39,268 nt of DNA from a virus. Taxonomy: Duplodnaviria > Caudoviricetes. Shown here one piece after another: positions 17,606 to 39,268 of the stretch (its first letter is position 1; each line of letters begins with the position of its first letter). Below the pieces are notes generated by a model. That model was not told the origin of the DNA. It made no database searches and saw only the letters and a program-made list of their open reading frames with translations. The DNA lies in IMG/VR virus record IMGVR_UViG_3300017747_003196, positions 1 through 39,268 of that record. The stretch is one strand, 5' to 3'. A program made the translations under genes and the position numbers.

Positions 17606-18013
17606 TTAGTTGGTAGGTTTACGAACAGTTACTTCATACTTCGAATCAGAGTTGAGCCCGGGCGGCAGCAAGTCCGGGTTGTCCTCCAAAAACTTGGCCA
17701 TGTTCTTCTGCGCAATGCGCCGCTCAAGAAGATCAACAGCGTCGTTTTGTACAACAAACTTGTGGAACGATTCCCAGTCATGCGTCTCGTAGCGGGTTTT
17801 GATGCTCATGATCACAGTGCCGTAATCAGTGCGAACTGACTTGACGCCAAGTGCTTTCATGTTGTCCCGCATAGCGCTGGCGACTTCGTCGCGTTTGGTC
17901 TGAAGGTCTGCGAGTGCGGCTTCGTATTCTTTGGTCAACGCTTGCATCTTGCCGCGAATTTTCAAGTAAACCTTAGCAAGCGTGTCCATAGGTATAACAT
18001 CATTTTCTGACAC
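17606..18013 (-). CDS. Conserved phage coiled-coil protein preceding SSB
   Basis: GTG start at 18013 with RBS GAAGGAG. Motifs 'YLKIR', 'DWESF..FV', 'LLERRI' and 'PPGL'. Confidence 0.7.
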   Translation of the reverse strand: MSENDVIPMDTLAKVYLKIRGKMQALTKEYEAALADLQTKRDEVASAMRDNMKALGVKSVRTDYGTVIMSIKTRYETHDWESFHKFVVQNDAVDLLERRIAQKNMAKFLEDNPDLLPPGLNSDSKYEVTVRKPTN

Positions 18014-18190
18014 GTCGATCTCCTTCGTTGTATGTTTAGTAGGCCGGTCTTTCCCGGCTGTCAGCATGCACCCCATTGGGAGAATCATCGAAGACGATTT
18101 TGGTCACATGCAGGCGCGGTTGTTTGCAGTATGCGTAACCTGCAGCGGGGCACACTCACGCCTTATGCCTCCGTTTTCTACACGTAAAAC

Positions 18191-18219
18191 ATTTTACACA
18201 TGGATTTTTGCATCCGCAA
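18191..18219 (-). promoter_or_regulatory. Putative sigma70 promoter for the SSB/HTH/primase operon
   Basis: Minus strand TTGCGG-17 bp-TAAAAT at the helicase stop, leaving a leader of about 170 nt. Confidence 0.5.
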
Positions 18220-26825: not shown

Positions 26826-26844
26826 AATGATTCTCCTTGGTTGG

Positions 26845-28438: not shown

Positions 28439-28465
28439 GATGGTTCTCCAGTTGTAGGTGTTGCG

Positions 28466-29701: not shown

Positions 29702-30733
29702 TTAGTAATAATACGTTTTGGGGAGAGACTCGGGAAACTGCCCGAGGTCTACGGGGACATCACCTTTCCGGATGGGGCAGATGTTGTCGCGCAGGTAACG
29801 CTCGAAGGAACTGCGAACGGCATCGGGGGAGAGCATGGGCATGTGCTCGGGGATGGGGCTACCTGACCAGTGGAAATACTTGTGGGCATCCTGCCACGAC
29901 ACCTCGCGCTGCACCCACACGCCGAACGCATGCTTATAGACCGCCGCGAATATATCCTGCAGCACCTTGAACATGGGCTCGGACATGTCACCCAAGCGCT
30001 CATTGCTCCATTGCAGCAGATCACCAACTTTGTTGCGCGGGTAGTAGTCAATACCCTTGAACGCACGCCCATCGTCGCGATTGATCTTCGTCTCGGCATG
30101 CACCGAGGGTATGGAAAGCAGCAGGATGTCAATGTAGGGCTTCAGTTTGTCCATGAACTCGGTGCGCGTGGCGGTGGCGTCCTTGCTTGTGCGCTTGATG
30201 TATACGGGGCGATGGGCTGACCGCTCCAAGACCAACCCGTTGTCCTTGAACGTAAGGACAGCGCTCCAACTGGAAGGCACCGTGACGCCGTTGTCGGCCG
30301 TGAAGGCTGATGATACGTAAGTAGATAATGGTATCCGCACAGGACGTTTGGGTTGTCGCTTTTCTTGCTGGTCTGTTGTGTCCCATGCTTCGCGGACGCT
30401 GTGGCCGCTGAAGTTAGCCACACGCCACAGAAACTGTCTGGATGTCGTGGAGTTATGGTTGCGCAGCCACACTACGCTTGACCCATCGGCTTCGGGTTGG
30501 AAGTAGCGCACCATGGACGTGCCGTAGAGCATCAAGTCGTAGAACTCGGGGGAGCCTTGCAGCGTGGTTCTGCGTTCGATGCGGTAGTGCGTTGCGGATG
30601 TGGTGTGCAGCGGGCGCTGGTGTTCTTCCCAACGCTTGGAGCGTGGCGGCTTGCGCGTCTCGTTGAAGTAGCGCTGTGCCTGTGGGTAACCGCTGATGGT
30701 GGGAAGGTTGTGTATTGCTGTCTGAAATGACAT
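29702..30733 (-). CDS. Hypothetical early protein (343 aa)
   Basis: Long ORF with RBS GGAGAATCATC-ATG. No recognisable motif. Confidence 0.75.
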   Translation of the reverse strand: MSFQTAIHNLPTISGYPQAQRYFNETRKPPRSKRWEEHQRPLHTTSATHYRIERRTTLQGSPEFYDLMLYGTSMVRYFQPEADGSSVVWLRNHNSTTSRQFLWRVANFSGHSVREAWDTTDQQEKRQPKRPVRIPLSTYVSSAFTADNGVTVPSSWSAVLTFKDNGLVLERSAHRPVYIKRTSKDATATRTEFMDKLKPYIDILLLSIPSVHAETKINRDDGRAFKGIDYYPRNKVGDLLQWSNERLGDMSEPMFKVLQDIFAAVYKHAFGVWVQREVSWQDAHKYFHWSGSPIPEHMPMLSPDAVRSSFERYLRDNICPIRKGDVPVDLGQFPESLPKTYYY

Positions 30734-30812
30734 GATGATTCTCCGTAGTTAGTTTATACAAAGTGAAAGTGGGACGGTGTGTCCCGGTTTGGGGCTTGAC
30801 ACTAGTCGTAAC

Positions 30813-31697: not shown

Positions 31698-31797
31698 GAT
31701 GATTCTCCAAAGTAAGTTAGTGAAAGGTGTTGCTGTGCTGCGGGTGCTGCATCCAAAGTGGGACAGGGCGTCCTGCTTTTATAAACCATGCCCCACT

Positions 31798-32256: not shown

Positions 32257-32533
32257 TGTCCACCTACGTCCAAAATGAAACCCCCGATATTGGCGTAAAT
32301 GTTTCTGCGTTATCAACATGTTAGGTCGAGCGTGTCCGGATGTCCACCTATTTTTGACCTTTAAGCTTTCCGACTTGCTTTCGACGGAAAACGTCCACTT
32401 AAAACGTATATATATATTTAGAAAGCTAAAAGAGTATATATATGTGGACATCTGGACAGGTGGACAGAACGTCTTTGATTTGTTTCAGTAATTTGCGCCA
32501 ATATCGGGGGTTTGAAATTGGACGCACTGGACA
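32257..32533. repeat. Nested inverted-repeat element with GTCC(A) iterons and (TA)n core; putative replication origin
   Basis: Perfect 18-bp IR at 32278-32295/32496-32513 and 14/15 IR at 32333-32347/32444-32458. Five GTCC[A/G] on the left, five TGGAC on the right, AT-rich centre at about 32400-32443. Confidence 0.7.
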
Positions 32534-33565: not shown

Positions 33566-33674
33566 GATGATTCTCCTAAGTGTGTTAATACAAAATGAAA
33601 GCAGGACTACTGTCCCACTTTTGCTTTGGGCATGATGCCCTGCATGACCCCGCTGGCGCAGGGTCATGCAGCGA

Positions 33675-33984: not shown

Positions 33985-34083
33985 GTTGATTCTCCAAAAG
34001 AAAGTGGGACACGAAGTCCCACAAGAAAGCCCCGCAAGCGGCGGGGCGGCGCAGTCGCTTGGAACCCCCAAACAACTACTTCT

Positions 34084-34286: not shown

Positions 34287-34319
34287 AAAAAAATCCCCAG
34301 AGAGGAGGTTCCGGGGATT
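34287..34319 (-). terminator. Intrinsic terminator of the putative sRNA
   Basis: AAUCCCCGGA-ACCUCCUC-UCUGGGGAUU-UUUUU. The single non-Watson-Crick pair is G-U only on the minus strand. Confidence 0.7.
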
Positions 34320-34357
34320 AAAGGTGCCTAAGTAAACGGCACTACAACGAAGGAGCT
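34287..34357 (-). ncRNA. Putative ~70-nt trans-acting anti-RBS small RNA
   Basis: Promoter TTTACG-17-TATACT, 5' seed CUCCUUCGUUGUA, hairpin GUGCC/GGCAC, then a 10-bp terminator stem and U tract. Complementary to several phage RBSs. Confidence 0.65.
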
Positions 34358-36877: not shown

Positions 36878-39268
36878 ATGGCAATAGACAAAGCACTGTA
36901 CGAAGCCCCCGTTGGCGTTGAAGAAGCCGCTATCGCGGAGCCGGAAGTTGAAATTGAAATCGTTGACCCGGAGTCGGTATCCATCGGCATAGATGGTGTT
37001 GAAATTGAACTTACACCGGGAAAAGAAACTTCGGAAGATTTTGGAGCCAACCTTGTTGAGTATATCGACGCAGGGGAGATGGAGTCCATTGTTTCGCAAG
37101 TTGCCGGGGATGTACGCAACGATTTGAATAGCCGCTCGGACTGGGAAAAAATGCTGAAGGAAGGCATCCAGTTGTTAGGTCTTAAATACGAAGAGCGAAG
37201 CGAGCCATGGTCGGGTGCGTGCGGTGTATTCCACCCCATGATTACTGAAGCGGTAATTCGTTTTCAAGCAGATACAATAATGGAAACGTTCCCTGCGCCC
37301 GGACCAGTCAAAACCAAGATTGTTGGCAAAGTTACGCGCGACAAGGAAGAAGCTGCGACGCGGGTTGCTGATGACCTTAACTGGCAGCTAACTGAAAACA
37401 TGACGGAGTTTCGCCCCGAGCATGAAAAGATGCTGTGGGGGCTGCCAGCATCTGGCGCTGCATTCAAGAAGGTCTACAAAGACCCGATGTTGGACCGCCA
37501 GACTTCTGTTTATGTGGCGGCGGAAGACATCATTTTGCCTTACGGCTCTTCTGATCTTCAGACCGCGCCGCGCATCACCCACCGCATGCGCAAGACCAAG
37601 AACGAAGTGGCCATGCTGCAGGCCGACGGGTTTTGGGTTGATAGCGATCTGGGCGAGCCGTCAAGGATGGTGGACGATATTCGCAAGACCAAGGACACAG
37701 AAGCTGGCGTGTCCGCTATTAACGACGACCGATACGTGATTGACGAAGTATGCGTAGACCTTGATTTGCCCGGATACGAAGATACCGATAAAGAGGGTAA
37801 CCCAACCGGTGTTGCGCTACCGTACATCCTGACTTACGTTGTGGGGTCCAATATCCCGTTGTCGCTGCGTCGCAACTGGCGCGAAAACGACAACAACCGC
37901 AGGAAGCGTTTGCACTACGTGCAGTATACGTATGTGCCCGGGTTTGGGCCTTACGGGTTCGGTCTCTTTCACCTGATTGGTGGTTACGCCAAGGCGGGTA
38001 CGTCCATTCTCCGCCAGTTAGTTGATGCAGGTACGCTGTCTAATCTGCCCGGAGGGCTGAAGTCGAGGGGTCTGCGCATCAAAGGGGATGACACGCCGAT
38101 CGCTCCGGGCGAGTTTAGGGACGTTGATGTGGGTAGCGGAGCCATACGGGACAACATTCTTCCGTTGCCTTACAAAGAACCGTCGCAGGTGCTGGCTGGG
38201 CTGCTGGACAAGATCATCGATGAAGGCCGACGGCTGGCTGCTTCCAGTGATTTAAAAGTTGCGGACATGTCCGCTCAGACCCCGGTTGGCACAACGCTCG
38301 CACTGCTGGAGCGGACGCTCAAGCCCCTGACGGCTGTGCAGGCACGGGTCCACTACTCGTTCAAGCAAGAACTGCAGTTGATTGCTGAGATTGTCCGCGA
38401 AGATTCTCCTGCTAACAAAGAGTATCCGTATGACGTGGACGCGCCGCAAGGGCGCAAGGCCAAGTACGAAGACTATCGTCATGTGGAGATTATTCCCGTC
38501 TCCGACCCCAACGCGGCGACGATGACGCAGCGAATTGTGCAGTACCAAGCCGTTATTCAACTATCCCAGAGCGCTCCGCAGATTTACAACTTGCCGGAAC
38601 TGCACAGGCAGATGTTGAATGTTTTGGGTATTAAAAATGTGGATAAACTGGTGCCGACGGAAGATGATCTTAAACCGATGGACCCGGTGACGGAAAATCA
38701 GAACATCCTGAACGGTAAACCCGTGAAAGCGTTTGCATATCAGGACCACGAAGCACATATTGCGGTCCACATGATGATGAAACAAGACCCGCTTATCCAG
38801 CAGATCGTAGGGCAAAATCCGCGCGTTAATGCTCTTGTTGCCGGGTTGGAAGCGCATGTTGCCGAACACGTTGGGTTTGCATACAAAAACAAAATCAGCG
38901 AAGCGCTGGGTGTGGCTATTCCGCATGCGGATGCTGATGAAGGTATGCCGGAAGAAATTGAATTTCAATTATCCAAGTTGCTTGCACAGGCTGCCCCGCA
39001 AGTTCTTGCGCAAAGTAAAGCAATGGTTGCACAACAGCAGGCCCAGCAGAATATGCAAGACCCCCTGCTGCAGCTTCAGAAACAAGAGTTGGACCTTAAA
39101 GCACAGAAGCAGCAACAAGACGCTGCATATAGAGACAAGAAACTTGCAGTAGATTCGGCCGCTAAAGCAGATGAATTGCAGCTGCGGGAACAGGAAATTG
39201 CGGGGCGACAGCGGATAGATTCGCTGCGCGTGGTTACGGACGCTGCGGCTAAAGCCGCACAATCTGAA
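36878..39268 (+). CDS. Portal protein, 3'-truncated (absent from ORF track, consistent with no stop before the window end)
   Basis: ATG at 36878 after AAGGA. Segments I translated: MAIDKALYEAP, SRSDWE, PWSGACGVFHP, FKKVY, PGFGPYGFGL, LRQLVDAGTLSNLP, and a Q-rich barrel-like tail. Confidence 0.88.
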   Translation, partial: MAIDKALYEAPVGVEEAAIAEPEVEIEIVDPESVSIGIDGVEIELTPGKETSEDFGANLVEYIDAGEMESIVSQVAGDVRNDLNSRSDWEKMLKEGIQLLGLKYEERSEPWSGACGVFHPMITEAVIRFQADTIMETFPAPGPVKTKIVGKVTRDKEEAATRVADDLNWQLTENMTEFRPEHEKMLWGLPASGAAFKKVYKDPMLDRQTSVYVAAEDIILPYGSSDLQTAPRITHRMRKTKNEVAMLQADGFWVDSDLGEPSRMVDDIRKTKDTEAGVSAINDDRYVIDEVCVDLDLPGYEDTDKEGNPTGVALPYILTYVVGSNIPLSLRRNWRENDNNRRKRLHYVQYTYVPGFGPYGFGLFHLIGGYAKAGTSILRQLVDAGTLSNLPGGLKSRGLRIKGDDTPIAPGEFRDVDVGSGAIRDNILPLPYKEPSQVLAGLLDKIIDEGRRLAASSDLKVADMSAQTPVGTTLALLERTLKPLTAVQARVHYSFKQELQLIAEIVREDSPANKEYPYDVDAPQGRKAKYEDYRHVEIIPVSDPNAATMTQRIVQYQAVIQLSQSAPQIYNLPELHRQMLNVLGIKNVDKLVPTEDDLKPMDPVTENQNILNGKPVKAFAYQDHEAHIAVHMMMKQDPLIQQIVGQNPRVNALVAGLEAHVAEHVGFAYKNKISEALGVAIPHADADEGMPEEIEFQLSKLLAQAAPQVLAQSKAMVAQQQAQQNMQDPLLQLQKQELDLKAQKQQQDAAYRDKKLAVDSAAKADELQLREQEIAGRQRIDSLRVVTDAAAKAAQSE

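Follow-up and report, generated by a model that had tools for sequence, protein, structure and literature searches.

In phages P1 and P7, the c4 RNA carries target-specific loops on a fixed scaffold and occludes a ribosome-binding site (RBS), as described in the available parts of two reports (PMC5320573, PMC12197685). A protein-based route is known from T4, in which RegB cleaves early Shine-Dalgarno (SD) sequences, thereby inactivating early messages and easing the move to later stages, according to the accessible text of PMC9409239. In cluster K mycobacteriophages, the available sections of Pope et al. 2011 describe a 13-bp SAS, of which a single inverted copy occurs in four genomes (PMC3203893); the function of SAS was described as not known, and was still so described in 2024 in the part of PMC11373665 available to us. 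Here we describe a locus that shares features with all three. In a virus record of 39,268 bases (hereafter the window; estimated completeness 62%), a conserved pseudoknotted RNA with a variable loop complementary to the RBSs of the phage's own upstream genes probably blocks translation of these genes in trans, as judged from sequence comparison.

The plus strand of the window carries the terminase and virion genes. The minus strand, read from right to left, carries small genes without assigned function, an ATPase gene (29593), a DUF2201 gene (28438), DNA polymerase, exonuclease, helicase (19771-18194), a 135-aa gene (18013), a 316-aa gene without assigned function, and primase. The 135-aa gene had been named SSB in the original prediction, a name not upheld here, as the protein falls in a PHROG without known function, has no Pfam match and belongs to unnamed Atlas clusters. 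Cultured phages are distant from the window, their helicases being approximately 37-40% identical at best. We use "early" for the block upstream of the polymerase, a label given by gene position only.

The element (18043..18169, minus strand) is about 127 nt long and comprises a pseudoknot plus two or three hairpins; covariance model R1 scored it at 102.8 bits, this copy being part of the training set. Reading 5' to 3' on the minus strand, stem P1 (18149..18169) pairs 18169-18166 with 18152-18149, as judged from pair counts in relatives, and its loop carries the 5' strand of the pseudoknot helix (18113..18162), in which GGCGUGAGU (18162-18154) pairs with ACCGCGCC (18120-18113), as judged from double changes in alignment A3. 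The element further has a variable hairpin A (18125..18145), with no family-wide RBS match, and a hairpin B (18064..18111), whose outer stem covaries and whose loop is variable and pyrimidine-rich. Hairpin B contains the anti-RBS tract GAUGAUUCUCC (18079..18089), and the element ends with a linker, UGACA, and a 3' hairpin, GCCGG-GAAAGA-CCGGC (18043..18063), a module widespread in viruses. All four hairpins originally listed for this leader are present in the minus-strand sequence, a list that did not hold the GGCGUGAGU/ACCGCGCC helix. The occlusion of the antisense segment by a stem, which had been raised as a weakness, was also borne out: in the window copy 7 of the 11 nt lie in a local stem (GAUGAUU paired with AAUCGUC), and CUCC is predicted to be mostly free and could serve as a toehold. 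The sister copies (L001, G001, and L284) are predicted to leave most of the tract unpaired in the loop. When folded as a single sequence, the window segment was not better than shuffled sequences (z -0.37), and singly folded hairpin B regions were uninformative (z -0.5 to -1.9). The case for structure therefore rests on covariation in relatives.

Among 54 loci picked by polymerase, four close relatives had a long spacer behind the helicase, and most others spanning the junction had less than 100 nt there; model R1 had no match in the remaining 50, many of which are fragments. Scanning viral and metagenome contigs for the pattern yielded the first family members, and an alignment of 24 of these was used to build model R1. 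In a gapped-pattern scan, about half of the 44 distinct matches were chance and were removed by eye, and one candidate, L228, was rejected as a tRNA. Because the search pattern had fixed the core, we assembled a set of 80 loci using the helicase protein alone (the best 80 of 594, ranked against the helicase of a carrier and thus a non-random sample). R1 matched 35 of these 80 loci (E<=1), and 33 were kept as members, one of which (L344) is the contig of a training member; L349 and L325 were dropped since they matched at the 3' hairpin only.

In the alignment of 34 distinct R1 matches from the helicase-picked loci (A3), which was fitted to the structure model, 96.1% of 613 cells were paired and double changes occurred at 18 of 20 pairs. 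The main pseudoknot helix (GGCGUG) had double changes at five of six pairs with 99% of cells paired, and was judged on A3 only, its invariance in alignment A1 being an artefact of the search pattern. P1 formed at least three pairs in 25 of 31 helicase-picked members, with a mean run of 3.8 versus 1.5 when partners were shuffled (0/10000). These values were counted over two registers; one fixed register gives 39/93, a low count because two registers exist. As P1 crosses the GGCGUG helix, the fold is a pseudoknot. Furthermore, G-U cells outnumbered unpaired cells in A3 (63 versus approximately 24), which places the element on the minus strand.

The search of Rfam that had been proposed for this leader returned nothing over the element in Rfam 15, at either the gathering threshold or E-value thresholds, among riboswitches, self-cleaving ribozymes and phage motifs. 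The segment 18169-18043 is thus apparently an unannotated structured RNA family, to judge from covariation. It resembles the RNAs from comparative screens, as described in the available parts of PMC5737381 and PMC10690425, in being intergenic, covarying and phage-borne. Literature searched for the hairpin sequence or for such an arrangement yielded no family description in the text available, and an unnamed listing in the supplement of PMC5737381 or in two large supplements of PMC10690425 is possible; the core motifs were absent from seven supplementary files of the latter.

The element has much in common with c4 as described in the available text. Both are structured phage RNAs with a conserved scaffold and one or more variable loops pairing at a phage RBS, and in the element, too, the variable loop is complementary to phage RBSs and changes with its target. 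c4 is processed from a longer transcript, as the element may be; in c4, RNase P makes the 5' end, and a second specificity loop pairs upstream of the RBS. On the other hand, c4 consists of three stem-loops (P1-P3) in about 77 nt, whereas the element has about 127 nt and a pseudoknot; c4 pairs through a' plus b', whereas the element would use one guide loop; c4 targets the ant message, whereas the element has about six predicted targets sharing an extended RBS; and c4 lies in an immunity region, whereas the element lies in a replication operon. A search of five genomes with the c4 model RF01695 (E<=10) gave nothing at the element, its sole match lying elsewhere at 11.7 bits against a cut-off of 45. 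By these model and structure tests the element is outside the c4 family. With RegB, again as far as the available text describes it, the element shares a predicted purpose, the inactivation of early messages via the SD region. RegB is a protein nuclease recognising GGAG, whereas the specificity of the element would lie in RNA pairing that is reprogrammed between phages.

The tract and its target sites in the window are as originally described. The 11-mer occupies 18089-18079 of the minus strand, and GGAGAATCATC, its complement, stands immediately before the ATG of a 122-aa gene (33565; site 33566..33576), a 70-aa gene (31697; 31698..31708) and a 343-aa gene (30733; 30734..30744), all on the minus strand. 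Copies with one mismatch (10/11) precede the ATG of a 35-aa ORF (33984; 33985..33995), the DUF2201 VWA/metallopeptidase gene (28438; 28439..28449), whose orthologous RBS changes with the loop in relatives, and a 302-aa gene with a weak, sub-cut-off DUF3150 match (26825; 26826..26836), again all on the minus strand. These six are the predicted target RBSs, by complementarity to the tract. A further near match at 38399-38409 is not followed by a start codon. In total, eight matches to GGAGAATCATC occur at one mismatch or fewer versus 0.45 expected (0/100 shuffles), and the early leaders in the window are repeats of one cassette. When folding cost was included, the best four of 41 window start regions (33565, 26825, 31697, and 28438) were all motif sites; the perfect site at 30733 fell outside the top seven under this method, which is unable to model loop pairing with the stem kept. 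The RBS and GTG start of the 135-aa gene (18011..18032, minus strand), which adjoin the element, are a poor partner for loop B, ranking 24th of 41 with folding cost included.

Across the family, an anti-SD 5-mer occurs in 41 of 53 distinct B loops versus 11.1 in shuffled loops, and an SD 5-mer in 1 of 53. The tract is conserved within the clade of the window, where a 9-nt core is shared by the window, G001 and L001 and differs at one base in L284; at tract positions 10-11, no covariation was seen between the window and G001. We then asked how loops and RBSs change together, the comparison originally put forward for this tract. Start regions were called in 57 members, proteins were clustered, and each loop was compared with its own and with foreign start regions. 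In tests of the 22 largest clusters, p<0.01 was reached in two early-block clusters, and nothing was seen for the helicase or the 135-aa gene. Pooled tests kept 34 of the 57 members; the 23 left out were near duplicates, lay on short contigs, had a different gene context or had a misaligned loop. In five early-block clusters (14 genomes, 39 genes), which were picked post hoc after the per-cluster results, own matches averaged 6.12 nt versus 5.00 +/- 0.21 nt in permutations that ignore relatedness (0/20000), and the excess persisted without the window (0/20000). The own loop ranked first in 8 of the 14 genomes and only 4th-8th of 14 in G004, G008, L385 and L396, and many matches span 5-7 nt. 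With no choice of genes, the best three of all upstream start regions also showed an excess (6.60 versus 6.00, 1/20000; 24 genomes), as they did without the window (15/20000).

The matching words differ among branches: GGAGAATCATC in the window, GAGGTAGCGA in L203, ACAGAAGGA and GGAGAT in L323, GACGAAAGG in L330, AGAAAGCG in L327, GAGGAGT in G002 and CTAGGAGA in L340, and the helicases of branches with differing words are 53-82% identical. The RBS of the DUF2201 gene tracks the loop in the window, G001, G002, L203 and L327. Sequence comparison among these phages shows the scaffold, the strand it lies on, the anti-SD nature of loop B, and loops that change in step with the early-block RBSs, the last across 14 divergent phages. 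The element is most likely a c4-like trans-acting anti-RBS RNA with several targets. Hairpin A showed no family-wide match to the early block or to start regions (-20 to +3; 4.17 versus 4.17) and was rejected as a general guide. In one clade (L190, L264, L218, and L346) the hairpin A loop is complementary over 7-9 nt to the polymerase RBS, and may be a possible second guide loop there.

Two alternative readings bear directly on these comparisons. The element might inhibit translation broadly through anti-SD pairing, chiefly with host messages, the matches to phage genes being a side effect. The loops are indeed generically SD-complementary, and several own-genome matches barely exceed the SD core. 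We nevertheless consider this improbable, as the excess is limited to own early-block genes, the matches reach spacer bases beyond the SD, and replication genes, which have the same host SD preference, showed no own-loop excess (34 genomes, 169 genes; 16890/20000). Phages have pseudoknotted 5' operators and put-type antiterminators, and in most members the element is directly followed by the helicase or the 135-aa gene and often preceded by a promoter; L284 also has an 8-nt match to its own downstream RBS. The element might thus be a leader that acts in cis on the operon behind it, as a translational operator, an antiterminator or a processing scaffold, its loop match being incidental. However, the RBS of the adjacent downstream gene does not covary with the anti-SD tract (26 genomes; 4.58 versus 4.48 nt, 6477/20000), so that a loop dedicated to that RBS was rejected; L197, L227 and L275 have no same-strand gene start close behind the element; and the early-block covariation would be left unexplained. 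This reading, too, appears unlikely.

A predicted sigma-70-type promoter (18191..18219, minus strand), recognised from the sequence and from relatives, overlaps the helicase stop. It reads TTGCGG-17-TAAAAT with an extended -10 TG and scores 8/12, under the scan threshold; the same site scores 9/12 in two sister phages, and a similar site is found in relatives without the RNA element. A sigma-70-like promoter lies within 100 nt upstream of the element in 13 of 53 members versus a background of 2.7%. An operator-like palindrome (18183..18198, no strand assigned) covers the -10 box and the predicted start site. The form TGTMAAA-N2-TTTKACA (<=2 mismatches) occurs at 18183 and at seven other window positions (29677, 32154, 32545, 34234, 34262, 34412, and 21610), including one at the start of a 210-aa gene before the terminase, and similar sites are found in helicase spacers of relatives.

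Contigs from RNA libraries overlap the element in four of the eight runs compared, out of 15 listed (X1, X5, X8, and X12), and in X5 and X8 the overlapping contig is the sole piece in 20 kb; these contigs carry no ends, strand or level. Among the pieces listed for X2, X3, X10 and X11, no contig lies over the element. Three of the four overlapping contigs run upstream of the predicted start site, from the helicase end. Because the contigs show no ends and three extend upstream of the start, the overlap is at most a weak hint of expression.

As a mechanism for the preferred reading, an anti-RBS RNA acting in trans, transcription from the 18191-18219 promoter would produce the RNA at the start of a message that continues into the 135-aa gene and the genes behind it. 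The RNA could act within this leader or after release, with the pseudoknot and the 3' hairpin shielding its ends. Pairing would begin between CUCC and GGAG and then invade the 7-bp local stem, and the resulting duplex of 10-11 bp would cover the SD and spacer and keep the 30S subunit off. The extended RBS common to the targets would be the address by which one RNA lowers about six genes once replication functions are expressed.

Since targets and element share one strand, the loop might instead pair in cis with RBSs that lie earlier on the same long read-through transcript, rather than with separate messages. A crude scan found no intrinsic terminator on the minus strand between 34000 and 13000, and the three RNA-library contigs that span the helicase end into the element point the same way. 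We regard this as quite unlikely, because the targets lie 8.7-15.4 kb upstream, too far for one intact bacterial message given mRNA turnover, because six sites are not coverable by one loop in cis, and because of the excess of promoter-like sites close upstream of the element. A last reading is that the match arose by chance or descent, as an early leader that was duplicated and inverted or as an RBS serving an ORF on the other strand, and that no functional RNA is involved. It could draw on the cassette-like early leaders, an opposite-strand ATG right behind the motif in G001 and opposite-strand SD-like sequences that yield two-gene matches in the non-carrier G010. It is very improbable, as on the plus strand of the window no start codon stands at SD distance, covariation of the scaffold is on the minus strand and differing loop/RBS pairs recur on separate branches, a covariation that already largely argues it away.

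A second candidate anti-RBS RNA (34287..34357, minus strand) has a promoter-like site, a single-stranded 5' tract, two hairpins and a U run. It is complementary to 18032-18020 (13 nt), 29613-29601 (13 nt) and 21262-21251 (12 nt), which are the RBSs of the 135-aa gene, the ATPase (29593) and a 150-aa gene (21243); all three partners are kept in G001. Exactly two same-strand sites in the window are complementary over at least 10 nt to at least two start regions, namely loop B and this RNA, so that two non-overlapping sets of predicted RNA and RBS partners coexist in the window genome. In G002 and G008, both partial genomes, no further anti-RBS site of at least 10 nt with several targets was seen. 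The two RNAs had been joined into a two-tier cascade with early, middle and late ordering. This cascade is only partly supported: its complementarity at 18020-18032 holds, and the ordering is not supported in the form given. A strict early-middle-late chain does not follow because the ATPase gene, a target of the second RNA, sits between 30733 and 28438, which are targets of loop B; because a duplex at 18020-18032 would block the gene behind that site rather than the RNA, which lies upstream; and because the RBS matches of 10-11 nt include no late (plus-strand) gene. Moreover, most members carry the RNA before the helicase gene and not before the operon of the 135-aa gene. Pairing of the second RNA at 18020-18032 could, as one conjecture, trigger a cleavage that frees the upstream RNA. 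In L385, about 7000 nt downstream of the element, another anti-RBS tract lies before a hairpin and is complementary over at least 10 nt to five of the phage's own start regions. In G010, upstream of the homolog of the 210-aa gene (window 34418), lies a diverged version of the 34287-34357 RNA whose 5' tract has changed; no 11-nt RBS match was found for it, and shorter ones are visible.

The repeated RBS of the window is comparable to SAS/ESAS as the available text describes them, in that an extended RBS is repeated before many non-structural genes, one inverted copy lies away from any start, and a subset has an upstream inverted repeat (ESAS). The two differ in host phylum and have no sequence or model similarity; a comparison of the 13-bp SAS consensus with the window showed the repeated RBS there to be a different sequence. 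In the window, an inverted repeat ending in GTCCCACTTT is repeated before early genes in a layout comparable to the cluster K ESAS (34010, 33107, 31764, 30775, and 29623 on the minus strand; 33612, 32604, and 29628 on the plus strand), with operator, promoter or RNA hairpin as candidate roles. Positions 32267-32524 hold long nested inverted repeats flanking an AT-rich core, resembling an origin. Within positions 20000-59646 of Adephagia (JF704105) there are 16 SAS copies on the gene strand and one inverted copy in the gap between genes 92 and 93. On the gene strand, the latter supplies the loop (CCUCCUAUCC) of a strong hairpin (L400:38661-38715; z -3.76 for a 161-nt region), and we propose this hairpin as a candidate anti-SAS RNA in a cultured phage. 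R1 had no match in the same Adephagia segment, and as only one genome is concerned the likeness is one of analogy; the presence of the inverted SAS in a hairpin loop makes the idea testable in culture.

If the trans-acting reading is true, one RNA silences a whole class of its own phage's genes via a shared extended RBS, which would make it the RNA equivalent of T4 RegB and a form of c4 with several targets. This would also give a reason for the repeated extended RBS motifs in phage genomes, of which SAS is the best-known case; Adephagia, a phage with working genetics, has the inverted copy that the idea predicts, in a hairpin loop. A natural scaffold tolerating many guide loops would further be a ready chassis for programmable translational repressors. 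More tentatively, and with some doubt, the element may be a mobile, reprogrammable scaffold in which a fixed pseudoknot core carries a swappable guide loop that reads the RBS address of a gene class; the window clade would have gained it and its early RBSs would have converged, the second non-overlapping pair (34287-34357) in the same genome would mean that orthogonal anti-RBS RNAs control stages, and the same logic would explain the cluster K SAS.

In most members the element lies before the helicase gene, and in the window clade and the L256 group it lies behind the helicase. A helicase tree of 23 rows groups the window with G001, L001 and L284 in a supported clade, nested among the non-carriers G010, G009, L033 and L045. 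Of the start regions called, GGAGAATCA occurs in 4 of 41 for the window, in 6 of 66 for G001, in 0 of 92 for the non-carrier G010 (80,000 of 80,527 bases covered), and in none for the partial G009, G011 and G012. The simplest reading is that the window clade gained the RNA behind a pre-existing promoter and that the early RBSs then converged on the loop. As related phages are without the RNA (the 50 polymerase-picked loci, many of them fragments), it appears dispensable in the lineage. The sole match in prokaryote genomes (L316) has no hairpin B, falls within coding sequence and was set aside as chance, so the host was not found. The pseudoknot core also occurs in other layouts (L197, L227, L275, L200, L261, L263, and L192), before a gene resembling the terminase small subunit or behind capsid- or portal-like genes, with ORF labels assigned by inspection. 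Finally, the 3' hairpin module is present in an estimated 1300 or so viral stretches, often directly before tRNA genes. In the 60 nt upstream of the module, an anti-SD 5-mer is present in 34 of 97 distinct contexts (L055-L174, several of them related) versus 12 downstream and 16.8 in shuffled sequences, and the module may mark the 3' ends of other anti-SD RNAs.
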